A model generated the notes under the pieces. That model saw nothing but the letters and a program-made list of their open reading frames with translations, did no database searches and was not told the DNA's origin. Positions 23,980-52,062 of a stretch of 64,000 nucleotides of DNA are shown here, in pieces. This stretch comes from an uncultured virus (IMG/VR IMGVR_UViG_3300020037_004263) (Duplodnaviria; Heunggongvirae; Uroviricota; Caudoviricetes): the IMG/VR virus record IMGVR_UViG_3300020037_004263. One strand, 5' to 3'. The position numbers were made by a program, and so were the translations under genes. Position 1 is the stretch's first letter; each line of letters opens with the position of its first letter.

Positions 23980-26900
23980 CGGACATGCTCGACCCGCTAC
24001 TCGCCTACCGCGACCGGTTCGCTGCCGTAGGCGAGGCTCCGATCGACTTGACGGACCTGGTCCCCGAGAGCTTTCTGACCCCTACCAGCTGGGCCATCAC
24101 CGCCGGCAATGCGGCGGGCGACTGGACCCTGTCGGGCAGCACGATCGACTTCAGCGTCGCGGGCGCGGCGGCGGACATGCCGAACAGCCCGTACACGCTG
24201 ACGATTCAGGCGACATGGGCGAGCCTTCCTGCGGCCTACCAGACGGCCTCGACCACCGTTACCGTCATCTGCCCCGCCGATACGCGCTACGTCGATCCTG
24301 CGGGCGGCTCCGATGCCGCGGCAGGCACCAGCAAGGCGGCGGCCTGGACCCACGCCACGGGCGACCCCAACGCTACGGGCAATGCGGCCTCCTTCTCGCC
24401 GTCGGTCCTCACGCTGATCAGCATCAAGGGCGGCACGACACAGATCCGCAGCAACTATGTCGCGCCGTCGAACAACAACATCGTCTATGCCTCCAGTATA
24501 GGCTGGGGAACGGGCCGGGCCATACTCTCGGGCCTCGATCTGCTTCCGGCCGGCACCGCAGCGTCCAGCGGGGAGGCGTTCGCCAACCCCTTCCTCGCCA
24601 GCATCAACAAGTACAGCCTCGGATATGCGTGGCAGTCCGGGCAATATCTCGTTGACAACGGGCAACTGATCTTCCCGGCGCAGTGGCCTGCGTCCGGCAC
24701 CGACCCGCTACTCGACAGCCAGGACCCGAACCGGCAGCTCACGGGCGGCATGTACCGCTACCCGGCGACGGAAGTGATAAACTTCGGTACGGCTTCCACC
24801 ACGATCACCGGCACGGCGGCAGCGGCTATCCTGGCGGCGTTCCCGACCGGGAAAAGCACGGTCGGCTATGTCGTCTGGCATTGGGTGGTGCCCAACGAGG
24901 TGCAGCCCTTCGTGATCACGGCGCACAACGTGGCGACGGGGCAGATCACCTTCGATACGTCCAGCGAGGCAACGACCAGCAACCTTCAGTTCGGGACATC
25001 GGCCACGCCGGCGCAACCCGCAAACGGCGACAGCGTGGTCGCGGCCGGCAAGACCTACACGTTCAAGACCGTACTCGACACCGGCGACGGCACCATCCTG
25101 ATCGGGGCTACCGTAGCCGACACGATCGGCAATTTCGTCGCCGCGGTGAACCTGGCCGCCGGCGCGGGCACGAAGTACGGCAGCGCCACCACGATCAACC
25201 CGTCGCTGAGCGCGAGCGTCAACGGCACCTACCGCGCGCTGATGCAGATCAAGGTCACCGGGACGTCGCTGAACAGCGTTGCTCTGTCGATCGGCGTCGG
25301 CACGATCCTGACGTGGTCCATCGCTACGATGGTCAGCGGGGTTCAGGAGGTCAACGGGACCACCGCGTTCCAGATCGTCGGACACCCGTGGTCGATCGGT
25401 GCGGCCAACCAGTTCGCCGGGAAACCGGGCGACACCTATGTCCTGGCCTGGCTATCGGACGGCGTCGCGCCCGAAATCCTCACGCGCAAGATCGGGATCA
25501 CCGCGAACAGTCCCTCCTCGCTCGGAGCCTACGGACTCCTGATCCAGGGGTACTACAACGATACCGCGAGCGCGGAGGGCGCCGGCATATCGGTCAGCCG
25601 CTCCAGCAATTTCACCTATAATTTCGCGAATAACGAGATCAAGTGGCTGGTCAACCACGCGACCAAGAGCGGGGGTATCCGAACGGTCGGCTCGGGCACG
25701 GCGACCTCCAACCGCCTTGATCGCAACTACATCCACGACAGTGTCCGGGCCAGCGGTATCCGGTATTCCTGCGCACAAACCGATGGCATCCAGGCGGTCA
25801 AGAACCGCGTCGAGCGCCTCACCCGCACCGGCATCTACATCGTCAACATGAAGAACAGCCTGGTTCAGGGCAACAAGCTGGTCTACATCATCAGCGCTCA
25901 TGGCAACGGCTTCACGTTCTACCGGACCGGAGTATATGTCCCCGACAACAACACGATCCAGTACAATTACACCGAGAACGTCATCCGCCCCCTTACCAAG
26001 GACGCCCACGCCAACTCTTTGTTCACAGGCAACATCTTCGAATCCGACGAACTGAACAACGACCCGGTTCGCGCTTACGGCAGCTATTCGACCGATGTCT
26101 GGTCCCGCAACATGTGCATGCGCTATCGAAATAGCGCGCTCACCGGCACCTACTCGATGAATTTCGGCCTGGGCGGCGGCGGGGCCTGTCCCTACTCGAA
26201 CAATGTCATCGACGGGGTCGTTCTCCAGTCCCCCTACGCCGCGGTGGGCACCGCCAATCTCATTACCAACGCCGTTGCAGGAACAGGAGCCGACGACGCT
26301 CTGGTCAACGGGATAAGCGACCAGATCGGCGGCCTGGGCTCGGACAACGTGTATTCTCCCTATCTGTGGGACGGCACGATCACCGCGCCGATGAAGAACC
26401 AGCTCGGTGTCGGCCGGATCGGCAACCAGCTCATCTACTCGATCGCGTCGGTATTTTTCCCGCCGCTCGCCAACCAGACGGTCTCGACCCTCGTCACGTC
26501 GGCCATGGCTCTGGTCGATACGCCCGATGCCACGAGGCCGATCAGCGTCAGCGGTGCGGGCAGTCCGCAATGGCGACAGGCCGACTACCCCGGCGGCGGC
26601 AATCCCACGGCTTGGACGTCGTCATCCGGAACGATCGACACCACGAAATATCTGCAGGTCCGCCAGACGACGTCGGCGAGCAACGAAACAGAGCAAACCG
26701 CGTCGATCGACCTTGGCGACGGCAACGTCTCGACCTGGACCGCGACGACCCTGAAAGCCAAGGACGTCCCGTGGGTCGCGATCAACACCAGCGATACATG
26801 GAACACGACATCGCAGGGCATCGCCGCCGACAGCCAGCTCCTGACGATAGCACTGAAGTTCAACTTCTCCGCCGCGCCAGGCTCGGCGGCTCTCATCTTC

Positions 26901-27863
26901 GGGCCGACTGCCGGCTCGCTGTATCTCCGGGTCCAGACCCTGGTAAGCGGGGGCGTTGGCGGCCTGAGATTCACGTTTCGCAATTCGTCCAACGTGACCA
27001 TCTGCCAATTCGACCTGGCGGCGCAATTCACGGTTGGTCAGGACTACGACGTTCAGGCGACGGCGGATCTCACTCAGCCCAACAGCACCGCCGGTCTGCG
27101 GGCCTTTATAGGCAGTTCGGCCGCCACGATTTCCGTTCTGACCTTCACGTCTGGCGCCACCATCGCCTTCAGCGGAGCCGCCGTCTACAAGTTCGGGAAC
27201 CTCAACCTCAACGCCGGTTTCGGGATGCTCTACCTGAGCAATCGTTGGGTCGATATCACCGATCCCGATATCCGCGAGCGGTTCACCAATGGACGCCGTC
27301 TCGGGCCGAACGGCGAGAACGTCGATGGCACGGCTCCGGCGATCCTGCTCCTTGGAACCGAGGCGCAATGGGAGGCCGGCGGCGGGATCAACCGCGGCAC
27401 ATCGGCCATGAAGTTCGTCCCGCAGGGCGGCACTGATGTGACGCCGGTTGCCGGTACGGTGACGACCTGGCCGTACTACACCTACGCAACAGCGCTAACC
27501 ATCACCTCGCCGGCCGATATCGAGCTCGGAAACTCGGCGGCCTTTACGGTCGCGACCGACGGGGCGACGGCCAACAACATCAGTGTCACCGTCAACGATG
27601 GAGCCCAAAGCGGGACATTCAACCCGGCGTCGCCGATCGTTCTGGTCAACGCCGACGCTCCTAGCCTGAGCTTCAGCTACACCCCTGCCCTGGGCGGCAA
27701 CAAGACGATCGCTGCCAGCGCGTCGGGATTGACCGGGGCTTCCGACGTCCTCGGGGTGACGCTGCCGCCGGTGGCCGTCACCTACACGTTCGACCTGACC
27801 GTAACGGATACCTATTCAGGACTTCCGACTGTCGTCCAGCGCAGTTTGACGGTGAACCCGTAA
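23976..27863 (+). CDS. Tailspike or polysaccharide depolymerase-like protein (parallel beta-helix plus lectin/Ig-like domains)
   Basis: RYVDPAGGSDAAAGTSKAAAW entry motif; Asn-ladder repeats (NNEIK, RNYIHD, NNTIQYN); 1295 aa. Confidence 0.75.
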   Translation: MTDMLDPLLAYRDRFAAVGEAPIDLTDLVPESFLTPTSWAITAGNAAGDWTLSGSTIDFSVAGAAADMPNSPYTLTIQATWASLPAAYQTASTTVTVICPADTRYVDPAGGSDAAAGTSKAAAWTHATGDPNATGNAASFSPSVLTLISIKGGTTQIRSNYVAPSNNNIVYASSIGWGTGRAILSGLDLLPAGTAASSGEAFANPFLASINKYSLGYAWQSGQYLVDNGQLIFPAQWPASGTDPLLDSQDPNRQLTGGMYRYPATEVINFGTASTTITGTAAAAILAAFPTGKSTVGYVVWHWVVPNEVQPFVITAHNVATGQITFDTSSEATTSNLQFGTSATPAQPANGDSVVAAGKTYTFKTVLDTGDGTILIGATVADTIGNFVAAVNLAAGAGTKYGSATTINPSLSASVNGTYRALMQIKVTGTSLNSVALSIGVGTILTWSIATMVSGVQEVNGTTAFQIVGHPWSIGAANQFAGKPGDTYVLAWLSDGVAPEILTRKIGITANSPSSLGAYGLLIQGYYNDTASAEGAGISVSRSSNFTYNFANNEIKWLVNHATKSGGIRTVGSGTATSNRLDRNYIHDSVRASGIRYSCAQTDGIQAVKNRVERLTRTGIYIVNMKNSLVQGNKLVYIISAHGNGFTFYRTGVYVPDNNTIQYNYTENVIRPLTKDAHANSLFTGNIFESDELNNDPVRAYGSYSTDVWSRNMCMRYRNSALTGTYSMNFGLGGGGACPYSNNVIDGVVLQSPYAAVGTANLITNAVAGTGADDALVNGISDQIGGLGSDNVYSPYLWDGTITAPMKNQLGVGRIGNQLIYSIASVFFPPLANQTVSTLVTSAMALVDTPDATRPISVSGAGSPQWRQADYPGGGNPTAWTSSSGTIDTTKYLQVRQTTSASNETEQTASIDLGDGNVSTWTATTLKAKDVPWVAINTSDTWNTTSQGIAADSQLLTIALKFNFSAAPGSAALIFGPTAGSLYLRVQTLVSGGVGGLRFTFRNSSNVTICQFDLAAQFTVGQDYDVQATADLTQPNSTAGLRAFIGSSAATISVLTFTSGATIAFSGAAVYKFGNLNLNAGFGMLYLSNRWVDITDPDIRERFTNGRRLGPNGENVDGTAPAILLLGTEAQWEAGGGINRGTSAMKFVPQGGTDVTPVAGTVTTWPYYTYATALTITSPADIELGNSAAFTVATDGATANNISVTVNDGAQSGTFNPASPIVLVNADAPSLSFSYTPALGGNKTIAASASGLTGASDVLGVTLPPVAVTYTFDLTVTDTYSGLPTVVQRSLTVNP

Positions 27864-33801: not shown

Positions 33802-35898
33802 GTGACGACATTCCAGACTGTGTTCGGCGGCACGACGATCTTTCCGTCCGACGTTACGCTGCTCGAACTCGCGCTCGACGATGACGTCACGCTCGAATGG
33901 CCGCTCGAAGCCGCCACGGGCGCGAACATCATCGCGCGGATTAACGAGATCACGCCGTCGGGCAGCTTCACCATCACGATGCCCGACGCGACGCAGACCG
34001 GCGTCGGCCAGACCATCCTGTTCAACAACCTTGGCCCCGACGATGTCACCATCGTCAAGGCCGGTGGCGGCGCGCTGCTCAGCCTCTCGGCCGGCGAAGT
34101 ATGGCAGCTCTACCTGACCGACAACACGACGACGGCGGGGTCGTGGAGCATCTTCCAGTACGGCGCTACCACGGCGCAGGCTCAGGCCGCGGCGCTCGAA
34201 GGACCGGGCATCGTCGCGATCGGCTCGGTGCTGGCGCAGGAGATGGCCGTCTCCACCATCAACACGACGCCTTATACCGCCTTGACGACCGATCGTTCGG
34301 CGGCCTTCGTGTGGATCGGATCGAGCGGGACACTGAACCTGCCGGCCGCCCAGACGGCGGGGCAAGGCTGGTTCCTCAACGTGCGCAACGGCGGCACCGG
34401 AGACTGGACGATCGACCCGTCGAGCTCGGAGACGATCAACGACAACACGACGCTCGTCCTGCAGCCTGGCGACAGCGCCGTCATCGCGACGGACGGCCTT
34501 GAATGGTGGACCATCGGCCTCGGCAAGCAGGCGGTCTTCGCTTTCGACTACACCTCGATCGATCTGACCGGCGTGACCGGCAACTACGTGCTGACCGGCG
34601 CGGAACTCAACCGCATCGCCTACAAGTTCACCGGCGCGCTGGCGGGTAACACGACCATCGTCGCGCCGCCAACCTTGCAGCAGTATTGGGTGACGAACGC
34701 GGCAACCGGGTTCACGTTGTCGCTGTCGGTCTCTGGCTCGGCCAGCCCGGTGAACATCGCGGGCGGCGGCAAAGGCATCTACTATTCCAACGGCGTGGAC
34801 ATGGTGCTGGCCAACACTGTCGCCGGCATCGCCACGCCGATCTCGGTTGCCGATGGGGGCACCGGGGCGACATCGGCGGCCAATGCGCGGACCAATCTGA
34901 GCGCGGCGGCTCAGGGTGCGAACGCCGACATAACCCGGTTGAGCGCGCTTGCGGACGGTAGCGTCAGTGCTACTGCAGCCGGTTTCAGCGGCGACGCCGG
35001 CGCCGGGCTCTACCGCCCTGCCGCGTCGCAGATCGCCCTCGCGGCAAATGCCATTCGCGCCGTGTTCGTCTCCACCGCCGCTTCGGGCAATATCGCCATC
35101 GGCCCCAGCGCCCTGGCGTCGGTGTCCTCGGCGACGGCCAAGTGTGTCGCGATCGGCGACCGTGCGGGCACGCTCTCGGTAGGCGGTACGGAGAACACCG
35201 CCATAGGGTATCTGGCCTTCAGCAAGAACGTCTCAGGCATCCGCAACACCTGCATGGGCAGTCTCGCCGGACTTGAAATGACCGGCTCGAACAACGTCTG
35301 CGTCGGCTACAACACGATCGGCACGAACCCGGCCAGCGGTAGCCAGAACACTGTCGTCGGTGCTTCGGCGAACATCACCGGCAGCGGCTCGAACAACACG
35401 CTGATCGGCTTCTCTGCGGGAGGCGTCGCGACCGGCTCAAACAACACGCTGCTCGGCAACGGTGCAACGGCGTCCGCGACATCGGTGTCAAACGAAATCA
35501 CCCTCGGCAACGGGTCCGTCAGTGTCCTGCGCTGCCAGGTCACATCGATCACGGCGCTGTCCGACGCGCGCGACAAGGACGACATCCAGACGCTGCCCGC
35601 CGGCATGGATCTGGAGTTCATCGACACCATTACCCCGCGCAGATGGAACTGGAACGCGCGCGACGGCTCCAAGGTCGGTGTGGCCGACATCGGCTTCGTC
35701 GCGCAGGAACTCAAAGAGGCGATGGCGCAGTGCGGCATCGAGGTTCCGGGCCTGATCTACGAGAGCAATCCAGATCGTCTCGAAGTCGCAGCGGGTCTGC
35801 TGCTGCCGATTGCCGTGCGGGCGATCCAGCAACTCTCGGACGCGCTCAACAACACGAACGGCCGGCTCCGGGCGCTGGAGGAATCCTTTGGCGGATGA
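33802..35898 (+). CDS. Tail fibre with a C-terminal intramolecular chaperone (peptidase S74-like)
   Basis: N..IG..A repeats; LSDARDKDDI...IGFVAQEL...AIQQL motifs. Confidence 0.8.
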   Translation: MTTFQTVFGGTTIFPSDVTLLELALDDDVTLEWPLEAATGANIIARINEITPSGSFTITMPDATQTGVGQTILFNNLGPDDVTIVKAGGGALLSLSAGEVWQLYLTDNTTTAGSWSIFQYGATTAQAQAAALEGPGIVAIGSVLAQEMAVSTINTTPYTALTTDRSAAFVWIGSSGTLNLPAAQTAGQGWFLNVRNGGTGDWTIDPSSSETINDNTTLVLQPGDSAVIATDGLEWWTIGLGKQAVFAFDYTSIDLTGVTGNYVLTGAELNRIAYKFTGALAGNTTIVAPPTLQQYWVTNAATGFTLSLSVSGSASPVNIAGGGKGIYYSNGVDMVLANTVAGIATPISVADGGTGATSAANARTNLSAAAQGANADITRLSALADGSVSATAAGFSGDAGAGLYRPAASQIALAANAIRAVFVSTAASGNIAIGPSALASVSSATAKCVAIGDRAGTLSVGGTENTAIGYLAFSKNVSGIRNTCMGSLAGLEMTGSNNVCVGYNTIGTNPASGSQNTVVGASANITGSGSNNTLIGFSAGGVATGSNNTLLGNGATASATSVSNEITLGNGSVSVLRCQVTSITALSDARDKDDIQTLPAGMDLEFIDTITPRRWNWNARDGSKVGVADIGFVAQELKEAMAQCGIEVPGLIYESNPDRLEVAAGLLLPIAVRAIQQLSDALNNTNGRLRALEESFGG

Positions 35899-37684
35899 AG
35901 CCATCATCCAGGTGGCGTCGGCTCCCGGCGTCAAGCGCGACGGCACCGTCTTCGAAGGGCAGAACTACGTCTCCGCGCAGTGGTGCCGGTTTCAGCGCGG
36001 TCTGCCGCGCAAGATGCCCGGCTACCGCGCGATCAACAAATACCTGCATGGCATCGGCCGCACGCTGCTCGGCTACACGCAGGACACTTTGACCTATGTC
36101 CACGTCGGCTCGGCCGACCATGTCGAGCGCTTTACGGTCGATGGCAACGGCAACACGTCGATCATCGCCGACCGGACGCCGGCGGCTCTGGTCGCCGACG
36201 ATCTCAACATGTGGCAGTTCGACACACTGACCGACGCATCCAGCGAAACCAACCAGATCGTCGCGCAGGTGGCGAGCAACCTTGATTGTATCTGCAGCTC
36301 CTCGGCAGGCCAGTTGTTCACCGGCGATCTGCTCGGCACCGGCGCACTTACCGAAGTCACGACGGTTCCCGGCAACTGGAACCCCAACGGCGGTACGGTC
36401 ACGCTCCACCCCTACAGCTTCGTCTACGGCAGCAACGGCTATGTTGCGTGGTCGATCCCCGGCGATCCGACCGATTTCACCGGCAGCGGAGCAGGGAATG
36501 CCTACATCACCGGGCAGAAGATCGTGCGCGGGCTGCCGTTCCGCGGCGGCCCCGGCAACAGCCCTTCGGGCCTGTTCTGGAGCGCCGACAGCCTGATCCG
36601 CGCCAGCTACATCGGCGGCACTCCGGTCTTCCAGTTCGACACGATCTCGGGCAAGACGTCGATCCTCGGCGCGCAGGCGGTGATCGAGTACGACGGCATC
36701 TTCTACTGGGCCGGCACCGACCGCTTCCAGATGTTCAACGGGGTAGTGCGCGAAGTCGAGAACAACATGAACCTGAACTGGTTCTATGACAATCTCAACG
36801 CGCCGCTGCGCCAGAAGGTGTTCGCATTCAGCGTGCCGCGCTACGGCGAGATATGGTGGTGCTTCCCCTTCGGCAACGCGACCGAATGCACGCATGCGGT
36901 GATCTACAACGTCCGCGAGAATACCTGGTACGACACGGAACTGCCCAACGAAGGGCGGGCGGCAGGACTGTCTCCAGCCGTGTTCCGCCGGCCGATGCTC
37001 ACCGGGGTCGAGCCGCAGGACTATATCGCCGTCGAGGCGACAGTCGTTGCCGGGGGCGCGAGCTACGCTGTCGGTGACGTGCTCTACGTCGTCGGAGGGA
37101 TCAGCGACATTACCGTCGAGCTGACTGTCGCGACCGAGACGGCCGGCGCTGTCACGGCGGTGACGGTGACCAACGCGGGCTCCTACACGTCGCTGCCGAC
37201 CAATCCCGTCGCGACGACATCGACCATGGGCGGCAGCGGCGCGACGTTCACGATGGAGTTCGTCGCGCCATACCGCTTCTGGATCCACGAGATCGGCACC
37301 AACGAGGTTGTCGAGCAGATGGAGCAGCCGATCCTGAGCTACTTCGAGACCGGAGACATCATGCTGCCGCTGATGGAGGGTATGAGCGGGGAGGACAAGA
37401 ACCTCAGCATCAGCATCGTCGAGCCCGATTTCGTCCAGTCGGGCGACATGTCGGTGCAGCTCGTCAGCCGATCGAACGCGCGTGCTCCCGAGATCCGCAG
37501 CGATCTCGTGCCTTTCTCCGAGCAGACGACGACCGGCGTCGGCGCGGACGGCCAGATCGCCCGGTTCAAGTTCGAAGGGCGTCAGTTGCGCTTCTACTTC
37601 GAGAGCAACACGGTCAACGGCACCTATCAGTTCGGACAGACCCTCGCCCACATCAAGCCGACAGACGGGAGGATCACGACATGA
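35888..37684 (+). CDS. Tail hub or DNA-stabilisation protein (P22 gp10-like)
   Basis: PGVKRDGT...WCRFQRGLPRKM; YGEIWWCFP...VIYNVRENTWY; TTG start after GGAGG. Confidence 0.7.
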   Translation: MADEAIIQVASAPGVKRDGTVFEGQNYVSAQWCRFQRGLPRKMPGYRAINKYLHGIGRTLLGYTQDTLTYVHVGSADHVERFTVDGNGNTSIIADRTPAALVADDLNMWQFDTLTDASSETNQIVAQVASNLDCICSSSAGQLFTGDLLGTGALTEVTTVPGNWNPNGGTVTLHPYSFVYGSNGYVAWSIPGDPTDFTGSGAGNAYITGQKIVRGLPFRGGPGNSPSGLFWSADSLIRASYIGGTPVFQFDTISGKTSILGAQAVIEYDGIFYWAGTDRFQMFNGVVREVENNMNLNWFYDNLNAPLRQKVFAFSVPRYGEIWWCFPFGNATECTHAVIYNVRENTWYDTELPNEGRAAGLSPAVFRRPMLTGVEPQDYIAVEATVVAGGASYAVGDVLYVVGGISDITVELTVATETAGAVTAVTVTNAGSYTSLPTNPVATTSTMGGSGATFTMEFVAPYRFWIHEIGTNEVVEQMEQPILSYFETGDIMLPLMEGMSGEDKNLSISIVEPDFVQSGDMSVQLVSRSNARAPEIRSDLVPFSEQTTTGVGADGQIARFKFEGRQLRFYFESNTVNGTYQFGQTLAHIKPTDGRITT

Positions 37685-37914
37685 TCGACCCGACCGGCCT
37701 TACGTTGCTTGACTGGACGGATTCTGTCATACTCGATAACGGTGACGCTTTCGGCTTTCCCAGGCTGATCGACGAGAACGCATGGCAGGACTGGGCCTCG
37801 AACTACGTAAGAGCACAGCCCTTCGCGCAGCGCGCTGTTCCTGATCCCTATCGGTTCGACGACTGGCGAGAGTGGGCCATGCGCAGCTATACCATGCTTG
37901 AAGGACAAGGCTGA
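37681..37914 (+). CDS. Small Trp-rich phage protein
   Basis: WQDWA...PDPYRFDDWREWA; coupled on both sides. Confidence 0.75.
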   Translation: MIDPTGLTLLDWTDSVILDNGDAFGFPRLIDENAWQDWASNYVRAQPFAQRAVPDPYRFDDWREWAMRSYTMLEGQG

Positions 37915-39590
37915 TGGCGTACTCGCCGGAGACCCAGGCTTACATCGACCGGATCAATGCCTACGCCGACGAGATGAGCGGCAAAGGTTACACGGTCAAC
38001 AAGCACGCCGTCGCCGGGCCGGAAGGCGAGGACCCCTACGCCAATCTGATCCGCACCGGCGTCGATCCCAAGAGCCTTGTCGATGTCGGCCACACCTTCC
38101 TGACGAACAAGGGCAACCGCGCCGACTACAAGAGCCAGAGCGGCGTTCTCTGGGCCAACCCCGACGCGCAGTACCACATCACCAACGAGCACGGGAAGGA
38201 CAAACTGCTCTACAGCGGGTCCGGGATCGAAGGTCTCGATCAGGTCTACGCCATTGCGCAGGAGCTTTCGAAGTCCGGCGGCAAGAAAGCCAACTGGGGC
38301 GTTGAGATGTACGACCCGGCGAGCGGACAGTGGGTGCGCTCGGCCGAGGACAATCCTTCGAAGAACCTGCTCGGCAAGATCGCCGACTTCGCGCTGCCGC
38401 TGGCTGGCGCGCTGCTCATGCCGGTTACGGGCGGATTGTCCGGGGCGTTGGCCGCAGGGCTCGGCGCGGCGGGCGGCTCGGCCCTGTCTGGGGTCGCGCA
38501 GGGCAAGAGCATCGGCAACATCCTCAAGGGCGCGGCGCTATCGGGCGGCTTGTCATACCTTGGCGGTTCGGCGCTGGGCGGCCTCGGCGGAGGTTCGGGC
38601 GGAGCCGCTTCTGGAGCCGGGGCAGGCGCGGCGGGAGGCGTCGGAAGCGCCGCGGGCTCGGCGCTAGGCGCGCTTCCCGGCGATATCGTCGTACAGGGCC
38701 TCAAGGGCGGTCTCGGCAGCGCGGTGGGAGGTGCCTTGGGCGGAGCGGCTGGCGGCGCTGCTGCAGGGGCCTTGGGTGGCTCCGGGGCGCTCCCGAACGA
38801 TATCGTCGTGCAGGGCGCGCGCGGCCTCGGGCAGTCGCTGCCCAACGCTCTGGGCAGCATCAGCGGCGCTGCGCTGACCGGGGCAGCCAACCAGCTTGGT
38901 GGCAGCGCGGCCAACAACGAGATCGTCGTCGAAGGGCAGAAGCCCCTCGTGCCCGAGAACTTCACGCTCACCCCCGAGATGCTCGCGTCGCTCGGCATCA
39001 CGACCGAGTTCGCGGCGACGCCGCAGGGCAAGTCGACCGTCGACAAGATCATCAGCGGTCTTAAAGCGGCGGGGCTGCTCACCGGCCTCGTCGGTAACGC
39101 GATCGGCGGAGGCGGCAAGAGCGGCACCGGGACGGTGCCCGGCGCGCTCGGCAACCTCAACCCGATCTTCTCGAAGACGCTGCCGACCACGAACATTCCG
39201 GGGGGCGTCGGCACCGCGGCGAACTTCGCGCCGCGCCAGATGCCCGAGCAGGACTGGAATCGCTACGCGATGCATCCCGAGCAGTCGTTCTTCAACTACG
39301 TGCCGCAGCGCTACACGCCGCCGGTACAGGCGTTCGCCAAAGGCGGCATGGCCGTCAAAGGCAAGGGCACCGGCCGCAGCGACGAGATCGACGCCAAGCT
39401 GTCCGACGGCGAGTACGTCGTCGATGCGGAGACGGTCTCGCTGCTCGGCGACGGGTCGAGCAACGCCGGGGCCAAAGCTCTCGACAACCTGCGCGTCGCC
39501 GTAAGGAAGCACAAGGGCCGCAGTCTGGCCAAAGGCAAGTTCAGCGCCAAGGCGAAGCAGCCCGAGCGCTATCTGGGGGTACGCAAGTAA
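37914..39590 (+). CDS. Putative DNA ejection (internal virion) protein, Gly-rich
   Basis: Gly/Ala hydrophobic segments; C-terminal FAKGG..GTGRSDEIDAKLSDGEYV motif; follows the tail hub. Confidence 0.7.
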   Translation: MAYSPETQAYIDRINAYADEMSGKGYTVNKHAVAGPEGEDPYANLIRTGVDPKSLVDVGHTFLTNKGNRADYKSQSGVLWANPDAQYHITNEHGKDKLLYSGSGIEGLDQVYAIAQELSKSGGKKANWGVEMYDPASGQWVRSAEDNPSKNLLGKIADFALPLAGALLMPVTGGLSGALAAGLGAAGGSALSGVAQGKSIGNILKGAALSGGLSYLGGSALGGLGGGSGGAASGAGAGAAGGVGSAAGSALGALPGDIVVQGLKGGLGSAVGGALGGAAGGAAAGALGGSGALPNDIVVQGARGLGQSLPNALGSISGAALTGAANQLGGSAANNEIVVEGQKPLVPENFTLTPEMLASLGITTEFAATPQGKSTVDKIISGLKAAGLLTGLVGNAIGGGGKSGTGTVPGALGNLNPIFSKTLPTTNIPGGVGTAANFAPRQMPEQDWNRYAMHPEQSFFNYVPQRYTPPVQAFAKGGMAVKGKGTGRSDEIDAKLSDGEYVVDAETVSLLGDGSSNAGAKALDNLRVAVRKHKGRSLAKGKFSAKAKQPERYLGVRK

Positions 39591-41341
39591 TGGCGCTCAC
39601 CGATTTCCTGACCGAAGGCGCGCAGATCCCCGCAGGCTCGGCGGTCAAGTCGATCACCTCCCAGACGGTGCTGCCCGACTGGTACACCAACTATGCGATG
39701 GACATCCTGTCGGGGCAGCAGGCTATCGCGGGCAACCCCTACGCGACGTACCAGGGGCCGCGTGTCGCCGACTTCACGCCGATGCAGCAGCAAAGCTTCC
39801 AGCAGGCCCAGCAGGCGGCGGGAGCCTACCAGCCCGGTCTCGACAAGGCGACGGCGGCAACACAGAGCGCCTTGGGCCAGAACGGCGCGTCCGCCGCGCA
39901 GCCCTACTTCAACCAAGCCGTCGGGCTCAGCCCGCTGGACGCCGGTCAGGCCGACTACAACGGCGCGCGAGGCAGCATTGGGGCGGCGACGGCGATCAAC
40001 CCCGGCACGATGGCACAGCCCTATTACGGCGCTGCGCTGTCGATGAACCCGTCGGTCTCGGCGGCGGGCGACTACGGCGCCGCGCGCGGCACGATCGGCT
40101 CGGCGCTGAGCTACAACGCACCGGGCGCGGCGCAGCCTTACTACGGTCAGGCCGGCAGCATGAACGCGCTCGGTGCGGCACAGCCGTACCTGAGCGGCGC
40201 TGGCGGCTACGCCATGCAGAGCACGACCGGCGACGGCCTCTCCGCCGCGATGCCGTGGCTCAACGCCGCTTCGGGCAGTGTCGCCAACGTCGGCGAGTAC
40301 ATGAACCCCTACGAGCAGGACGTGGTCGATTACATCGGCCAGCAGGGGACGCGCAACCTGCGCGACACGATCATGCCCGCGCTCGAAGGCCGCTACATCA
40401 CCTCGGGCCAGTTCCGCGGCAGCGGGCAGCTCACCGACACGATGCGCGCCGTGCGCGACACCTCGCAGGACATCCTCGGTCAGCAGGCGCAGTTGCGGCA
40501 GTCGGGCTACATCAACGCGCAGAACCAGAAGGGCAACGACCTGAGCCGGTACGGTCAGCTCGGCTCGACAGCGGGCAATCTCGCGGTGCAGCAGCAGCAG
40601 GCCGTCGCCAACGCGGGCAACATGCTCGCCAACATCGGCGCGACAGCAGGCAATCTTACCGCCGGTCAGCAGCAGCTGCTCGCCTCGATGGGCACCAATC
40701 TGGGCCAGCTTACGCAGGGCCAGCAGCAGGGCGCGCTGTCCGCCGCGAACCAGATGGCGGGACTGGGTGCGTCCGAGGCGGGCATGACACAGGCCCAGCA
40801 GAACCTGCTGCAGGGCATCGGCACCCAGACGGGTCAGTTCGGTGCCGGCCAGCAGCGGACTGCGCTTGATGCCGCCAGCCAGCAGGCTGCCCTCGGTTCG
40901 ACGATGTCGGGTCTCTCGCAGGCCCAGCAGAACCTGCTGCGCGGCATCGGCGGCGATGTCGGCGCGCTCACCGGCAGCGACGCCTCGCGCTCGCTCGCCG
41001 GCGGTGCGCAGCTCGGCAACCTCGCCGGCCTCGCCCAGCAGTACGGCATCACCGGGGCCAACGTGCTCAACCAGGCGGGCTCGCAGCAGCAGCAGCTCAA
41101 CCAGCAGAGCCTCAACACCGCCTACGAGGACTTCCTGCGGCAGCAGGGCTACCCGCAGCAGCAGATCGACGCGATGCTGGGCTCGTTCAAGGGCGTGGCG
41201 ACAGGCGTGCCGTCGGCGACGCAGGAGTACGGCGTCGTGCCGTCGGGCGTCCCGGCCGAGTACAAGCCGTCGACCGCATCCAACATCGCCTCCGGGCTCA
41301 CCGGCGCTGCGGGCATCATCGACCTGCTCAAGGGTCTGTAG
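39590..41341 (+). CDS. Putative DNA ejection protein (Gln/Ala-rich helical repeats)
   Basis: YQGPRVADF, YMNPYEQDVV, AYEDFLRQQGYPQQQ motifs. Confidence 0.7.
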   Translation: MALTDFLTEGAQIPAGSAVKSITSQTVLPDWYTNYAMDILSGQQAIAGNPYATYQGPRVADFTPMQQQSFQQAQQAAGAYQPGLDKATAATQSALGQNGASAAQPYFNQAVGLSPLDAGQADYNGARGSIGAATAINPGTMAQPYYGAALSMNPSVSAAGDYGAARGTIGSALSYNAPGAAQPYYGQAGSMNALGAAQPYLSGAGGYAMQSTTGDGLSAAMPWLNAASGSVANVGEYMNPYEQDVVDYIGQQGTRNLRDTIMPALEGRYITSGQFRGSGQLTDTMRAVRDTSQDILGQQAQLRQSGYINAQNQKGNDLSRYGQLGSTAGNLAVQQQQAVANAGNMLANIGATAGNLTAGQQQLLASMGTNLGQLTQGQQQGALSAANQMAGLGASEAGMTQAQQNLLQGIGTQTGQFGAGQQRTALDAASQQAALGSTMSGLSQAQQNLLRGIGGDVGALTGSDASRSLAGGAQLGNLAGLAQQYGITGANVLNQAGSQQQQLNQQSLNTAYEDFLRQQGYPQQQIDAMLGSFKGVATGVPSATQEYGVVPSGVPAEYKPSTASNIASGLTGAAGIIDLLKGL

Positions 41342-41350
41342 GAGGGGCTG

Positions 41351-42151
41351 GTGGCAACGATCTCACAGGATGGCTGGCAGCGGATGCTCGAAGCGCTCGG
41401 ACCGGATAAGGCCGAGCAGTGGCGCGTCCAGCAGGGCATCGAGGTAGAGACGCCGCAAGCGTTGCCCGACGCCGGTGCCGAGACGCCGATGGGCGCGTTG
41501 TCGCAGCCGACGACGGCGCAGAACCCGGACTCCAAAGCAGGCTTGTTCGCCCTGCAACGGGAACTGGCGCAGACCAATACCGAAGATCGCGACTACCAGC
41601 GCCGCCGATTCGAGGAAGGGCGCGCTCGCCTCGAACGAGAGCGCACAGGGCCGTCGACGGCTGAGCAACTATTCCGTCTTTCTGCCGCTTTCGCTCAACC
41701 GCAGCGCTACAAGGGCTTCGGCGGGATGATGGCCAACGTCGCTCCGGTGCTGGGTGATATGGCAGCAATCCGGGAGCGTGCTGGTACTGATCGCGCGGCG
41801 GCGTTGGAGAAGCTGCAGGAGCAGTACATGACCGGCGACTTCGCGGCGCGGCGGCAGGATATAACAGGCCGACTCGGTATCCAGAAGACGATAGCGGAGA
41901 TGGAGAAGCCTAAGGCGCGGCGCACCGGGATCAGTCCGGTGGATGGTTTGCTCTATGATCTCGACACCGGCGAAGTCATTCCGTTCAAACAGGCTGGTGC
42001 CAACGGCGGGGCCAACCTACCGGTCATCTCGTCGCCCGAGGAGGCGCGCAAGCTGGCTCCCGGCACCACGTTCCGCACTCCAGACGGCAGAATCAAACGG
42101 GTTCCCGGAGGTCCGACGCAGTCTGCGTCGGGCGGCTTTCCCGGCGGTTAG
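41351..42151 (+). CDS. Putative ejection protein, probably extended by frameshift
   Basis: GGAGG RBS; helical; ends with LAPGTTFRTPDG...GGPTQSASGGFPGG. Confidence 0.75.
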   Translation: MATISQDGWQRMLEALGPDKAEQWRVQQGIEVETPQALPDAGAETPMGALSQPTTAQNPDSKAGLFALQRELAQTNTEDRDYQRRRFEEGRARLERERTGPSTAEQLFRLSAAFAQPQRYKGFGGMMANVAPVLGDMAAIRERAGTDRAAALEKLQEQYMTGDFAARRQDITGRLGIQKTIAEMEKPKARRTGISPVDGLLYDLDTGEVIPFKQAGANGGANLPVISSPEEARKLAPGTTFRTPDGRIKRVPGGPTQSASGGFPGG

Positions 42152-42512
42152 CGGCAACGATCTCGACCACATCACGATGATGTCCGAGAGCGCGGGCAAC
42201 CCGAACGCGGTCAGTCCCAAGGGCGCTCGCGGACTGATGCAGGTCATGCCCGAGACGGCGCGCGATCCCGGCTTCGGTATCCGCCCCTCAAACGGCACGC
42301 CGCAGGACGATGTGCGCGTCGGGCGCGAGTACCGTGCTGCGATGCGGCGGAGGTACAACGGCAATCTGCCGCAGATGTGGTCGGCCTATAATGCCGGGCC
42401 GGGGCGTACCGACGCGTTGATCGAGAATTACGGCGACGACTGGCTGCGCTACGCGCCGGCAGAGACACAGGCTTACGTTGCGCGCAACATGCGCGCCGTC
42501 AGGAGGAAGTGA
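42138..42512 (+). CDS. Lytic transglycosylase (SLT) domain with no evident start of its own
   Basis: SESAGNPNAVSPKGARGLMQVMP, AYNAGPG, ETQAYV. The start coordinate given is the proposed frameshift site. Confidence 0.85.
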   Translation, partial: FPAVSGNDLDHITMMSESAGNPNAVSPKGARGLMQVMPETARDPGFGIRPSNGTPQDDVRVGREYRAAMRRRYNGNLPQMWSAYNAGPGRTDALIENYGDDWLRYAPAETQAYVARNMRAVRRK

Positions 42513-44998
42513 TGGCCGTAGATCCTTGGGCTGAGTTTGAAGACGTGCAGCCGTCTGCGCCGCGCCCGACGCTCAAGGAGCGCGACATCATGGCTGGCAT
42601 CGACCAGAGCGGTGCGAGCGCGGCGTCGTCTGCTGCCAGTGCTCGGCGCTCGGACACGCTGCTGCCTGCCGACGCTGAGAAGGCTGCCGCGGAGGCTCGC
42701 AAGCTCCAACTCGAAACGGAGAAGCTGGAGCGCGAGGCCGCCCAAGGCCCTGCGCTGACCGGCGACAAGCGCGCCGAGCTCAAGGACACCTTGACGTCGC
42801 TCAAGCAGTTCGAGAACGATCTCGGGCTGTTGGAAACCTCGTTCGACAAGAACTTCGAGGACCAGGGCCTTGCAACGCCCCGCGAGTATCTGCCGGGGAT
42901 GCTCAGTCCGACCAACCAAGCGTACAACGCGGCCTCGAACCGACTGCTCCCGCTCGTGGCCCGCGCCCTCGGGTTTACGTCCAAACAGATGGACACGCCG
43001 TCGGAGATCGAACGGCTCAAGTCCTATGTGCCGACGAACACCGACTCGGACCAGACTGCTCGCGAGAAGCTCACGGCACTGCGCGGCATGCTTGATCGCC
43101 AGCGCGAGAATGCAGCGACGCAGCTCGGGCAAGTAGCGCCGGGAGACGGTGAACAGCCGCCTGCCGTGGCCGGAGCGGTAGATATCGGCGCCGGTCCTAC
43201 GCTCCCCGGCGCGGACGGCGGAGGTAACATAGTACCTCCGGCAGGACCGACCCCTCCGCAGTTCTCTCCGGGAGATCCGCAGATGCAGGCGGCGACCGGC
43301 GACACGCGCCGCGTCGCGGACCCGCAGCTTCAAGGTCAGATGGACGCCATGCTGCGGCAGGGCGCGTCGTTCAGCGACATCAACGCTTTCGCGATGAGCA
43401 AGGGCGCGGAACCGATCAACCGGCAGCAGTACCTCGCGGTGCGCAACTTCCTGCGCAAGAACCCCAACTACGAGGGCAGTCTTGTCGACGTCAACCGGTA
43501 CGAGCCGGTTTCGCTTTTCGAGAAGAATGTCACTGCGGTCGGCAACAACTCGGGCGGGTCCTACCTGCTCGGCGCGGGTCAGATGCTGTCGGCCAACACA
43601 CTCGACGATCTCGCCGCTGATCCGCAGCGAGCCAACCTTGCGCTGGCGATGGCCCAGGCACAGAGTCCGACGGCTACCGGCCTTGGGCAGATGAGCGGCG
43701 CGACCTTGGCAGCGCTCTCAGGGGAGGCGGGCCTTGCCCGCCTCGGTATGGCTCCGGGCCTTGTGCGCGGAGCGCTGGCCGACGTCGGCATGGGCGCGGC
43801 TTCAGGTGCTGGTGCAGCCGGGGACGGCGACCGGGCGATGGGCGCGCTGCAAGGTGCTGGTTACGCAGGTCTCGGCAGCGCCGGCGGCAGCGCGCTCGGC
43901 GCGGGACTACGGCGCGTCGGGACAGGTGTCGCTGATCCTTCGGTACACGCCATGGCCGCCGAGGGCGTTCCGCTGACCATCGGGCAGGTCTATGGCCAGT
44001 CCGGTCTCCCCGGTCGCATCGTCAAGGGCATCGAGGACCGCATTGAGGGCTTCCCGTTCATCGGTGCCGCGGTCAACGCGCGTCGTCGCGGCGGCTACGA
44101 CGTCTTCAACACCAAGACGTTCGAGCGTGCGCTCAAGCCGATCGACGGCAGTGTCGGCGGCAAGGTCGGTGAGGATGCCGTGCTGGCCGCGCAGGGCCTT
44201 GTGGACGCCGCTTACACCAAGGCGCTGGCGGGTAAGGTGGTTCAGATCGACAATCAGTTTGCGAGAGACCTGTCGCAAGCTGTCACCAAGGTCGCTGGAC
44301 TGAGCCGGGTCGGGCCGGAAGTGTTGGAGGACGTCAAAGCTGTCTTCGATCCGTTCAAGACCGGTTCGACGTTCACCGGTCCAGAGATGCAAATAATCAA
44401 ACGCGATCTTGAAAAGATCAAACGCAACTACCGTAACGACCCAAGGGGGGAAGCCGTCAGGAAAGCAGTCGACGAAGTGAAAGACGCTGTATTCGGCATA
44501 TTCCGCCGACAGACGCCGGAGGTGGTCCCTGACTACCAAAAGGCCGACATGGCCTATCGCAGGCTCTCAACGGTCGAGGACGCCGTGCTCGCAGGCAAGA
44601 ACACCAAAGGCAAATTCACCCCTGCGCAGCTCGGGACGGCCGACAGGGCGTCAACTGTCAAGTTCGAGGGCAAGCGCGCAGCGGCGCGTGGCGACAGTCC
44701 GTTCCATGACTTCCAGCGCGACGCGCAGAACGTCCTGCCGAACGAGGTGCCCGACAGCGGCACTGCGGGACGTCTGGCGGCGGGCATGCCTGCCACGGCA
44801 GCTGGGCTGACGCTGGCGGGCATTCTCGGCGCGGCTTACACCAAGGCCGGGCAACGGCTCCTGACCAAGCCCGGTCGCGGCGTCGAGAACGAGATGCTGA
44901 AGAAGGCGCTTACCGACGAAAGAACCCGCCTACTGCTCGGTAAAGCGGGAGCAGGAACCGGGGCGGCTCTCGGGCTGGGAACATATCCCGGCCCGTGA
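42512..44998 (+). CDS. Large putative ejection (internal virion) protein
   Basis: DPWAEF N-terminus; GVPLTIGQ; VPDSGTAGR; last gene of the virion operon. Confidence 0.7.
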   Translation: MAVDPWAEFEDVQPSAPRPTLKERDIMAGIDQSGASAASSAASARRSDTLLPADAEKAAAEARKLQLETEKLEREAAQGPALTGDKRAELKDTLTSLKQFENDLGLLETSFDKNFEDQGLATPREYLPGMLSPTNQAYNAASNRLLPLVARALGFTSKQMDTPSEIERLKSYVPTNTDSDQTAREKLTALRGMLDRQRENAATQLGQVAPGDGEQPPAVAGAVDIGAGPTLPGADGGGNIVPPAGPTPPQFSPGDPQMQAATGDTRRVADPQLQGQMDAMLRQGASFSDINAFAMSKGAEPINRQQYLAVRNFLRKNPNYEGSLVDVNRYEPVSLFEKNVTAVGNNSGGSYLLGAGQMLSANTLDDLAADPQRANLALAMAQAQSPTATGLGQMSGATLAALSGEAGLARLGMAPGLVRGALADVGMGAASGAGAAGDGDRAMGALQGAGYAGLGSAGGSALGAGLRRVGTGVADPSVHAMAAEGVPLTIGQVYGQSGLPGRIVKGIEDRIEGFPFIGAAVNARRRGGYDVFNTKTFERALKPIDGSVGGKVGEDAVLAAQGLVDAAYTKALAGKVVQIDNQFARDLSQAVTKVAGLSRVGPEVLEDVKAVFDPFKTGSTFTGPEMQIIKRDLEKIKRNYRNDPRGEAVRKAVDEVKDAVFGIFRRQTPEVVPDYQKADMAYRRLSTVEDAVLAGKNTKGKFTPAQLGTADRASTVKFEGKRAAARGDSPFHDFQRDAQNVLPNEVPDSGTAGRLAAGMPATAAGLTLAGILGAAYTKAGQRLLTKPGRGVENEMLKKALTDERTRLLLGKAGAGTGAALGLGTYPGP

Positions 44999-48780: not shown

Positions 48781-50826
48781 TCAATCCTGTTTCGCGTACC
48801 TGAGCATCTCGTGACCCGCCGCAGCGAGCGGCAGGCCCAGCGACCACGGCGGATTCGTCGCCATGATGGCGCTCAGGCCCTCGGCGGTGTAGTTGTCGTT
48901 GTCGGGGGTCTCGGTGATGTTTTCATCATGCACGGGCAGCAGGATGGCGTATCCGGCCGCCTCAGCGTGCTTGGCGCCGAACTTGAAGACATCGCGAGCC
49001 GTGCCCTGAGTGGATTGCTCCCCAAACTTGCCTCCATATGTCTCGATCGTTTCCCATTGCCGGGTGTACTGGTTCAGGCCGTCGTAGCGTATCTGGCTGT
49101 CGCTCTTGCCGGTGCCGTCGCACCCGGGGCACATCACTTCGGTATCCGCCGCAACGAACGTCTTGCCGGTGCCCTCGCAACGGATGCACTTCGCACCGAT
49201 CCGGGCGTTCGGGTAGCTGAGGTATCGGCCCGACGGCAGCCGCAGGCGGAGCCAGGCGCCGCGCATGTCGAACCGTAGCCCGCGCACCTCGAAGGCTTCC
49301 TTGGGGAAGCGAATCGCGGCCTTGGCAGCGTCCTCCAGAGCGTACCACAGACGCACGATGTTCGGGTGAGTCTTGCGCCACGCCTTGACGATGGTGACGG
49401 CCTCTTCCTCGGCCATCACGACGCCGTAGTTAGCGCCCATTTTGGCGAAGGCTCCCGGCCCTCCCTGAAAACCTAGGGCGAGCTCAGGCACCTTACCGTA
49501 TGCCTGCCGCTCGTCCTTGGTGATGTCCTCCGGCCGCTTCCGAAGGATGTTCCCGGCGGTCAGTTTATAGATGTCGTGACCCGTTCCTCGATCGAACGAG
49601 CGGAAGGCGTCGAGCTTCCAGTCCTCGCCGGCGAGCCATGCCAGCACGCGGCCCTCGATGTTGGACAGGTCGGCGACGACCAGCTTCTTGCCTTCGTCGG
49701 CGATGAGGCAGCCGCGCACGGCGTTCGAGCACAGCTCGCTGACATTCTCGTAGAGCAGATCCTCGCAGTCCGCCTTCATGGCACGGATGGCGCGCTCGAT
49801 CTCCCACGGCCTGAGCGTCGGTCTCGGCAGGTTCTGCGGCTGGAACAGACGGCCGGCGTCCCGACCCGTGCGGGAGGCCCCGCAGAACTGGATAGTGCCG
49901 CGCAGCCGGGCGTCAGACGAGGCGGCCTTGAGCAGCACTTTGTACTTGGCCGGTGACGTCGCGGCGGCCTGCTGCCTGATCTCCAGCAGCTCGCGCACCT
50001 CGTCGGTGATGTCGTCGCGCTTGAGCGCCGCAGTGACGGTGCCCTTGGTTAAATCCGCTGTCTCGAAGTCGTGGGCGTCGGACAGGTGGTCGAGCAGCTT
50101 CTGCCGCTGCGTCATGCTGCCGACGGCCCCACCAGTCAGGTCGGTGGACCGCTTCGCGAGTTCCTTAGACGTGCGCTCGAAAGCGCGCAGGGCAGAGCGC
50201 GCAAGGTCCAGGTCGACCTTGACGCCGCGGTCGTTGATCTTCTGGTCAAGCAGCCACAGCTCGCGCTCCGACGGCGTGTCGTTCCAGCGGGGGATGCGCT
50301 TCAACACCTCGCGCATGGCCTCGATGTCCGAGGCGCCGTAGCTTTTGAACGCCTCCCACTCGGCCGGGTGTGTCTCGCGCGTCGCCCGGTCCAGCTTTCG
50401 ATTTTTCCCGAGAGGTTTGCAGAAAAGCTGGATCAGCTTCTTGCCAGCCTTGTCCTTGGCCTTATCGACCGGGACGCCCAGAACCTCGCATAGCTTGTCC
50501 AGCCCGGCCGGCAGGCTGTGCATCAGCGCGAGCACCATGGTGTCGGTGATCTTCTCGGTGGGGATGGTGACGCCGCAGTGGCGCAGAACGGTGCGGTCGA
50601 ACGACGAGTTCTGGATAATGATCTCGTCGGCCTCGTCGATCATCCACTGCAGCTGCGGGGCGTAGCGCTCCCACTCGTGGGGGCCAGAGACGTCCTCGAC
50701 ATGCACCGGGCCGTCGTCCCAAGCGTGCTGCACGAGCAGCAGCTCGGCATGCTCAGCATAGGCGTGAACCCCACTTGTGATGGGCACGGTGCTGAACGCC
50801 TCAGTATCAAGGTAGAGAGCGGTCAC
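48781..50826 (-). CDS. polA: DNA polymerase, family A (APSE/Bcep-like)
   Basis: LDTEA exonuclease motif, RTGR..GRLFQPQNLPR, ADLSNIEGR, ERQAYGK, VHDE. Confidence 0.95.
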   Translation of the reverse strand: MTALYLDTEAFSTVPITSGVHAYAEHAELLLVQHAWDDGPVHVEDVSGPHEWERYAPQLQWMIDEADEIIIQNSSFDRTVLRHCGVTIPTEKITDTMVLALMHSLPAGLDKLCEVLGVPVDKAKDKAGKKLIQLFCKPLGKNRKLDRATRETHPAEWEAFKSYGASDIEAMREVLKRIPRWNDTPSERELWLLDQKINDRGVKVDLDLARSALRAFERTSKELAKRSTDLTGGAVGSMTQRQKLLDHLSDAHDFETADLTKGTVTAALKRDDITDEVRELLEIRQQAAATSPAKYKVLLKAASSDARLRGTIQFCGASRTGRDAGRLFQPQNLPRPTLRPWEIERAIRAMKADCEDLLYENVSELCSNAVRGCLIADEGKKLVVADLSNIEGRVLAWLAGEDWKLDAFRSFDRGTGHDIYKLTAGNILRKRPEDITKDERQAYGKVPELALGFQGGPGAFAKMGANYGVVMAEEEAVTIVKAWRKTHPNIVRLWYALEDAAKAAIRFPKEAFEVRGLRFDMRGAWLRLRLPSGRYLSYPNARIGAKCIRCEGTGKTFVAADTEVMCPGCDGTGKSDSQIRYDGLNQYTRQWETIETYGGKFGEQSTQGTARDVFKFGAKHAEAAGYAILLPVHDENITETPDNDNYTAEGLSAIMATNPPWSLGLPLAAAGHEMLRYAKQD

Positions 50827-51341
50827 ACGTACTCCCACCCGGCAACCGGCGGTGCGTAGAGATGCAGCTTGTCGCGCTTGAGCGGCCCTTTCTCCCAGCC
50901 CGCCATGACGTAGCAGTAGCCAGTGCGCCTGCGCGCGGAGACATCGACCTCGGTACGCAGGCGCTCGTCAGGCAGCTCGCCATAGCGCTCGGCCCATTTG
51001 GCGTAGGTCATCTCTGTCGCGGCGCGGATGAGATCGCTGGAGAGACCAGCGCCGAGATTCCGGAACAGCATGTTGCGCCAGACGTAGGTCGCCCTAACGT
51101 CGGTCTGAGCCGTGCGCCCGCGCGAGGCACCAGAGCCTCGGGCCATCGGCGTCTTCTGCCTGACGACTGCCCAGACGGCTTTCCCGCACGGGGTTACGAG
51201 CACGATCTCCTGCCCGACGCCCGTGAAGGTCTTCGATCCCGGTGTGCGCCGCGAGTAGTGGGGTCCGTGCCCTTCACAGACACCGCAGCCGTCGACCACG
51301 TCAAGAGCCCGCCGATCGCTGGATGAACTGAGCAGCCACAC
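50823..51341 (-). CDS. Putative Mom-like GNAT DNA-modification protein
   Basis: HYSRRTPGS...FRNLGAGLSSDLI...TEVD...GYCYVMAGW resembles the Mom-family motif order. Assignment is from memory. Confidence 0.55.
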   Translation of the reverse strand: MWLLSSSSDRRALDVVDGCGVCEGHGPHYSRRTPGSKTFTGVGQEIVLVTPCGKAVWAVVRQKTPMARGSGASRGRTAQTDVRATYVWRNMLFRNLGAGLSSDLIRAATEMTYAKWAERYGELPDERLRTEVDVSARRRTGYCYVMAGWEKGPLKRDKLHLYAPPVAGWEYV

Positions 51342-51343
51342 GG

Positions 51344-51583
51344 CTACAGCACGAAGTTCGGCTGGCCGTCCTTGGCTTTCCACTTGAGGTGAATCCAGCC
51401 CGGCGGAACGTAGTGCGAGATGCCATCAGCGTCGAACAGCCGGTGACTGCCTCGTTCGCTGACGTGCAGCTGCAAAGGCGTCTTGATCCAGACGTGCCGT
51501 CCGTTTTCGAACTCGTACTCTCGCCACGCTTCGCTGGAGATATCCACGAAAACGAGATCGGTAACGTTGTTGAAGTTTGTCAT
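51344..51583 (-). CDS. Conserved phage hypothetical protein
   Basis: DISSEAWREY...HRLFDADGISHYVPPGW. Confidence 0.75.
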   Translation of the reverse strand: MTNFNNVTDLVFVDISSEAWREYEFENGRHVWIKTPLQLHVSERGSHRLFDADGISHYVPPGWIHLKWKAKDGQPNFVL

Positions 51584-51804: not shown

Positions 51805-52062
51805 TCACACGTACTGCAAGCCGATGGCCCGCTCGTACGTTTCGATCAACTCGTCGAGCGTGGTCCGCTCGTCCTTGTCCATCTTCATCCGCGCGTAGAC
51901 CTTGCGCATGATCTTGGTGTCGTAGCCGAGCGCCTTGGCCTCCGCGTAGATATCCTTGATGTCGTCCGCCGCGGCCTGCTTCTCCTCGTCGCGGTTGCCG
52001 ATGCGCTCGAAGAACTGCTTGAGGCGTTTATCCTCGTCGCCGTTGTGACCGATGCCCGCCAT
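51805..52062 (-). CDS. gapR: GapR-like nucleoid protein (DUF2312)
   Basis: GHN...RLKQFFERI...EEK...DDIKDIYAEAKALGYDTKIMR. Confidence 0.9.
   Translation of the reverse strand: MAGIGHNGDEDKRLKQFFERIGNRDEEKQAAADDIKDIYAEAKALGYDTKIMRKVYARMKMDKDERTTLDELIETYERAIGLQYV

Follow-up and report, generated by a model that had tools for sequence, protein, structure and literature searches.

TonB boxes, as they are known, are N-terminal. According to the available portions of the sources cited here and below, TonB pulls on the box and unfolds what follows it (PMC12905483, PMC9022066, PMC10994204, PMC11658791). Pyocin S2, KlebC and colicins 5 and 10 carry a TonB box of their own and are imported by such pulling (PMC10994204, PMC11658791, PMC9022066), with KlebC and the two colicins entering via TolC (PMC12905483, PMC9022066, PMC10994204, PMC11658791). 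In Sphingobium DdvT, the box IIVT is required for uptake, which the substitution T43A reduces (PMC6874591). Energised TonB or its relative TolA can also be hijacked by phages (PMC12905483), and infection by T1 and phi80 requires energised TonB (PMC11658791). The question here is what force carries the ejection proteins of podoviruses across the envelope. In the literature searched, with subscription journals mostly outside its scope, we found no account of a TonB box on a protein of the phage virion, and the papers listed for a TonB box together with phage DNA ejection all concerned T5 and FhuA. The word TonB occurs zero times in the accessible text of a review of ejection proteins (PMC8954989) and of the Pa223 paper. 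We describe a locus from what appears to be an RW-like podophage of Alphaproteobacteria, in which an internal virion protein would bear TonB-box mimics and the Ton motor may be used in ejection, a reading to which we give even odds.

The window, by which we mean the whole stretch of 64,000 nucleotides analysed (uncultured virus IMGVR_UViG_3300020037_004263), also encodes a terminase, a capsid protein, a family A polymerase and a helicase in addition to the features in Table 1. The tail hub matches PDB entries 9nwi_Y (E = 8e-15) and 8zkk_O, "nozzle gp16" (E = 4e-8). The motif gene stands behind it in a structural block of overlapping codons, between the hub and the lytic transglycosylase, as an ejection gene would. 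Because tubeB followed by a block of ejection genes is a mark of an ejectosome podovirus (PMC10386132), we infer that the motif protein is packaged and ejected. It has no significant match to characterised ejection proteins of the gp14/gp7/gp56, gp15 or gp16 classes; podoviral ejection proteins diverge down to 7–19% identity (PMC8954989). Comparison with the ejection and needle proteins of Bruynoghevirus gave no significant assignment (E = 0.24; probability 0.3%), with composition-like weak matches at E of about 0.009. Here the lytic transglycosylase has a short ORF to itself; in RW, an SLT-like sequence is seen by eye at the C terminus of gp63. Elsewhere in the window, a 1,295-aa ORF (23976–27863) without a PHROGs match is probably a large tail spike or receptor-binding protein, positions 33802–35898 encode a tail fibre or spike whose C terminus is a peptidase S74 chaperone, and a 186-aa ORF on the minus strand (50823–51383), without a Pfam match, may resemble Mom-like DNA-modifying acetyltransferases.

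Table 1. Features of the locus, with positions in the window
Feature	Position	Strand	Basis or remark
Podoviral tail hub / nozzle (tubeB), start uncertain	35897..37684	+	PDB and Bruynoghevirus matches
77-aa ORF between hub and motif gene	37681..37914	+	Similar-sized gene at the same place in RW
Motif gene: putative internal virion (ejected) protein, 558 aa	37914..39590	+	RW gp66 orthologue
Folded N-terminal domain, residues 1–150; hallmark of box-bearing subfamily	37914..38363	+	AlphaFold2
Gly-rich, mildly hydrophobic helices, residues 151–216	38364..38561	+	Model; hydropathy peaks 1.55, 1.27
Motif 1, DIVVQG, residues 257–262	38682..38699	+	Host-box matrix rank 2 of 101,887; score 14.1
Motif 2, DIVVQG, residues 296–301	38799..38816	+	Host-box matrix rank 3; score 12.6
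Motif 3, EIVVEG, residues 336–341	38919..38936	+	Rank 1 with both host matrices; score 16.3
Second hydrophobic helix, residues 375–398, C-terminal to boxes	39036..39107	+	Model and hydropathy
Conserved C-terminal region	39162..39587	+	Invariant columns; partly ordered in model
583-aa Gln-rich putative ejection protein, without boxes	39590..41341	+	Bruynoghevirus orf15 likeness non-significant
266-aa putative ejection protein	41351..42151	+	Gene order matches RW
SLT lytic transglycosylase ORF, 189 aa, start uncertain	41943..42512	+	PF01464, E = 4e-17
829-aa putative large ejection protein	42509..44998	+	Closes the structural operon
GapR-like protein	51805..52062	-	PF10073, E = 2e-22

Four of 50,697 phage records matched the motif protein, namely the Caulobacter phages GB2A, RW, RLK and KcrB, which have the same gene order; RW-like phages are thus its nearest relatives in culture. 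These phages of the Riverwalk cluster infect C. vibrioides, and the accessible text of the paper describing them mentions TonB or a receptor zero times (PMC11053796). The orthologue in RW is gp66 (56% over residues 413–554), with five box-like motifs by a wide pattern, and the orthologues in the cluster are annotated solely as hypothetical or tape measure proteins. The latter annotation is accounted for by residues 471–531, which resemble a tape-measure segment of siphophages (PHROGs, E = 1e-6; PDB 8zdo gp16, E = 1.3e-6). We nevertheless reject the tape measure assignment, as the likeness covers only about 60 C-terminal residues, the middle of the protein is disordered and the tail gene is podoviral. 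This C-terminal segment (39324–39506) is common to the podoviral motif-protein family and the tape-measure proteins of long-tailed phages, including actinophages. The GapR-like gene points to an alphaproteobacterial host; among 14 control genomes, GapR occurs in C. vibrioides only.

The original prediction of three TonB-box-like motifs in this ORF proved accurate, as did their intervals of 39 and 40 aa within a Gly/Ala/Ser linker. When the 558-aa protein was shuffled 20,000 times, the pattern [DE]IVV[TQENS][GA], devised post hoc from the motifs already seen, turned up a single time in 6 shuffles and twice in none. Motifs 1 and 2 are nearly identical in their codons, and motif 2 is probably a duplicate of motif 1. 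In a 63-row alignment (A1), two residues of motif 3, I337 and V339, are 84% and 87% conserved, respectively. An AlphaFold2 monomer model of the protein, likewise with 63 alignment rows, gives pLDDT below 50 at residues 216–336 and 338–344, without strands; the boxes are thus in an unfolded, accessible segment in this monomer prediction. An intramolecular fold of the motifs, which the original prediction had set against itself, is not predicted in the monomer, where all three lie within the disordered residues 216–344. The N-terminal domain (mean pLDDT 93.7 for residues 1–156 modelled alone) co-occurs with the boxes throughout the family, and no signal peptide is visible in the sequence. As for the membrane helices of the outer-membrane-channel class of ejection proteins, the motif protein shows mild hydropathy peaks of 1.3–1.55 and Gly-rich helices; the model has helices at 152–216 and 375–396, and residues 151–216 are the candidate membrane-inserting part.

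Searches with the protein and its model returned no named relative. There was no Pfam match, and no bacteriocin family at E ≤ 0.1; Foldseek with the whole model gave no match at E ≤ 0.001, and the best VIA Z score was 6.6. For the N-terminal domain, the top fold was the RuBisCO small subunit (Z 6.2, rmsd 3.7, 79 aligned), a match no better than background; a viral structure library held only four uncharacterised relatives, and the ESM Atlas returned only viral clusters without names. A model of a TonB C-terminal domain with residues 322–356 scored 0.28 and 0.18 against a mark of 0.32; built with Caulobacter TonB as a stand-in for that of the host, with 18 rows in alignment A2 and with controls not folded, it bears neither way.

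The likeness to host TonB boxes can be best illustrated by comparison with receptors, for which we used 86 of 137 plug-bearing receptors from three sphingomonad replicons, with 80 boxes called, and 27 of the 28 plug-bearing receptors of a Caulobacter genome (G002), the truncated one being left out. With a matrix of the 80 sphingomonad boxes, the three phage motifs were the three best of all 101,887 six-frame windows. Control matrices from 80 random non-box sites of the same pattern gave them median ranks of 65, 34.5 and 28.5 and never placed all three in the top 10 in 200 draws, whereas matrices from 30 true boxes did so in 199 of 200. The likeness also holds in the opposite direction, as a bare-IVV matrix from the phage put its best site at the box position in 80 of 86 sphingomonad receptors, and the phage matrix (whose seed pattern was author-written) put its best site directly before the plug in 24 of 27 Caulobacter receptors. 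Furthermore, flanks alone picked the box among hydrophobic cores in 78 of 80 sphingomonad (27.8 expected) and 25 of 27 Caulobacter cases (10.7 expected). The phage motifs score low, at 16.3, 14.1 and 12.6, because sphingomonad boxes have Thr in 92%; the true sphingomonad boxes, scored by leave-one-out, have a median of 26.1, with their 10th percentile at 13.8. With the Caulobacter matrix, motif 3 ranked first and motifs 1 and 2 fell outside the top 25; the Thr place is taken by Asn, Glu, Val, Leu or Ile in 5 of 27 Caulobacter box calls. By eye, the motifs of RW and of the loci L001 (8660–10402), L012, L013, L085 and L088 often have Val three residues before the core, as do 21 of the 27 Caulobacter box calls. 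Also by eye, the motifs of the present phage look sphingomonad-like; Asp precedes the core in 60% of sphingomonad boxes.

The family of the motif protein comprises 4,332 uncharacterised representatives at E ≤ 1e-3, many matched over the C-terminal part only. Conservation was examined in 274 homologues of at least 450 aa, out of 286, near-copies included. In their middle part, with no motif assumed, EIVV was the most enriched 4-mer and DIVV the third. The strict motif occurred 207 times in 141 of the 274 proteins, against 0.06 in shuffles. When only the motif-free residues 405–558 served as query, the motif was present in 92 of the best 120 of 1,858 matches. After the IVV core, 278 unique family windows have Thr in 40%, Asn in 15%, Glu in 15%, Ser in 12% and Gln in 5%; before it stands Glu (44%) or Asp (40%), and Gly (54%) or Ala (34%) and, two further on, Arg (26%) or Lys (23%) follow. 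It had been cautioned that Gln or Glu replaces the usual Thr, which is true of the three motifs here. The absence of Thr is, however, specific to the sub-branch of this phage, since at least one Thr-form motif occurs in 149 of 274 family proteins. Copies per protein range from 0 to 7, with 1–7 in carriers. The median of 217 spacings is 50 aa (quartiles 40–73), and only 3.2% are shorter than 25 aa, compared with 42.5% under random placement; in part, this spacing could stem from duplicated linker units. The motif is largely restricted to one gene, with 54 sites in 44,439 aa of motif protein versus 2 in 242,602 aa of neighbouring ORFs. In two other loci (L045, 11847–15194; L100, 11607–13811), a later and larger protein of the ejection block has one strong box-like site, with scores of 16.7 and 16.3. 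Judged by these sequence patterns, the motif is a real, selected and host-like linear motif. Taking the match to host boxes together with conservation, disorder, single-gene restriction and spacing, we consider it likely that the phage motifs are TonB-box mimics.

Among 96 full-length homologues out of 114 in our locus set, the motif was present in 50 of the 61 that share the N-terminal domain (5.5 expected; the pattern was loosened after the data had been seen), in none of 30 members of a sister subfamily with the same C-terminal domain, and in one of five others. The 11 members of the 61 that fail the pattern include five without any look-alike. A stricter host matrix found 73 sites in 32 of the 96 homologues, against 0.4 in shuffles, and a de novo 4-mer search of the 64 proteins without a host-matrix match revealed no replacement box motif. 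As a tree built from the C-terminal 95 aa had little resolution, with one starred branch, trees of 86 tail-hub proteins were used instead. All 45 motif-positive rows fell into one group of 58 (SH-aLRT 98), delimited after the first tree, and none of the 28 rows outside it has the motif. In a survey of 47 chosen records, many of whose GapR-negatives are short fragments, 22 of 29 from the box subfamily carry GapR, as do 2 of 18 others, both within the tail-hub group. Since all carriers belong to one group, the host link is a single event and not repeated co-variation. The distribution fits a single origin of the boxes in phages of receptor-rich Alphaproteobacteria. Three loci of the 58-row group (L065, L070 and L105) have another N-terminal type and no boxes, two of them with GapR, which could reflect a change of host or the exchange of a module. 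The Caulobacter podophages Cd1, Percy and JessA lack a box in the proteins of their ejection block, as does a Bruynoghevirus (best score 8.2), although a 152-aa protein of JessA has one loose match to the pattern; given the three Caulobacter phages, entry into Caulobacter needs no box in general. Host labels of 21 loci from genome contigs were left unused, as they scatter over many unrelated phyla, which suggests mis-binning of phage contigs. Outside the main group, a distant homologue in the spring phage of L004 (5306–7225) has a Cys-rich linker and one box-like site. Phage MinM2 (L005, 6500–7384), whose listed host is cyanobacterial, has a boxless homologue of 294 aa annotated as a calcium-binding protein.

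The occurrence of TonB handles on a putatively injected protein and most of its relatives hints that these phages may borrow the TonB motor for DNA delivery. We speculate that the motif protein would be packaged and exit early through the tail hub, that helices 151–216 would insert in a membrane while the unfolded linker reaches the periplasm, and that the TonB C-terminal domain would bind a box in beta-strand pairing, in the manner known for receptors and bacteriocins. Retraction driven by ExbBD could then draw the chain inward, with the boxes giving successive or parallel grips; by our arithmetic, an interval of about 40 residues corresponds to about 14 nm of extended chain (0.35 nm per residue). 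The C-terminal part and its cargo would thereby be drawn across the periplasm, helping to assemble the DNA conduit. To the reading that the phage uses the host Ton motor mechanically in ejection we assign a probability of about 0.5. A stronger version, in which the motor grips successive boxes some 40–50 residues apart as on a ratchet track and hauls the ejectosome without any TonB-dependent receptor, throughout a widespread clade of alphaproteobacterial podophages that includes cultured RW and has the motif protein as an additional ejected protein, is tentative and somewhat doubtful. The original prediction had joined box mimicry to a stepwise pull by TonB–ExbBD; the likeness stood in both directions, but the pull, plausible by analogy with the import of bacteriocins, is not separable from tethering or jamming.

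In the latter case, the boxes would bind TonB without using its work, either tethering the ejection apparatus to an inner-membrane anchor or jamming TonB; jamming could block TonB-dependent competitors or uptake, after injection or through a membrane-anchored copy made late in infection. The sequence evidence for mimicry fits this explanation equally well, carriers have from one to seven copies and a single copy cannot ratchet, and weak, Thr-less boxes behind hydrophobic helices would suit an anchored binder that relies on avidity. Nevertheless, the gene sits in the overlapping-codon structural block running from tail hub to SLT, and short spacings are avoided, although the sterics of TonB binding could equally cause this avoidance; we regard tethering or jamming as unlikely. 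The partner could also be another strand-binding periplasmic protein, such as a non-energised TonB_C paralogue, TolA or ExbD. Caulobacter G002 has seven TonB_C matches, one of them seen in an exbBD operon in the two loci inspected, and TolA and TonB are related and both hijacked (PMC12905483). However, motif and flanks match the TonB box of receptors itself, and such a partner seems to us distinctly improbable.

The same flanks, acidic before the core and Thr, Gly/Ala and Arg/Lys after it, also speak against the idea that the motifs serve as beta-strands by which the ejected oligomer assembles or another phage protein is bound, their resemblance to TonB boxes being convergent. This idea draws on the refolding of ejection proteins upon release (PMC8954989), on the invisibility of inter-chain sheets to a monomer model and on how common short IVV strands are; against it, variable copy number and spacing are typical of a linear motif, and the sister subfamily has the same C-terminal domain with the motif in 0 of 30. 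We think it about as improbable as the other partner. Finally, neutral tandem duplication within a low-complexity linker would explain why motifs 1 and 2 share almost all codons, but it is contradicted by conservation, with the motif retained in homologues about 40% identical despite divergence of the linker, and is scarcely credible.

Thus, we suggest that the case for TonB-box mimicry is strong and that for motor-assisted ejection even, and the proposal is testable with phage RW. If mechanical use of the Ton motor is true, it would put a name to the host motor and offer a handle open to mutation, with RW on C. vibrioides CB15 as a pair that can be cultured for tests. Phages would then engage TonB directly, as bacteriocins do, and TonB dependence need not imply a TonB-dependent receptor. 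Boxes arrayed by nature could likewise be used to gauge the stroke length of TonB and whether the motor re-grips.

The resemblance to known systems is partial in each case. Like T7 gp14–16, P22 gp7/20/16 and Pa223 gp56/54/53, the genes here form a block that follows the tail hub and includes an SLT domain and Gly-rich, mildly hydrophobic candidate membrane helices; however, there are four large ORFs instead of three, significant homology is lacking, and the first putative ejection protein has 558 aa rather than about 200–313. The box consensus of alphaproteobacterial receptors, acidic-I-(V/I)-V-T-(A/G)-x-(R/K), matches that of the phage family, both being short and unstructured. Receptors (Plug, PF07715; for example Sphingobium DdvT) have a single box right before the plug, whereas the phage proteins have neither plug nor barrel, one to seven internal boxes (here at residues 257–341, preceded by a folded domain and by hydrophobic helices) and Thr in 40% instead of 92%. 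For T1 and phi80, the box is on the receptor FhuA and, in the available text of the literature examined, on no phage protein. Group B bacteriocins, like the phage protein, are foreign and bring their own box in a disordered stretch, but they are toxins with an N-terminal box and receptor-binding and cytotoxic domains that thread host pores, while the phage protein is encoded in a virion structural operon, has a tandem internal array and presumably enters via its own tail. The motif region therefore resembles the import signal of TonB-dependent bacteriocins, in a protein that is outside the bacteriocin family and not a receptor either.
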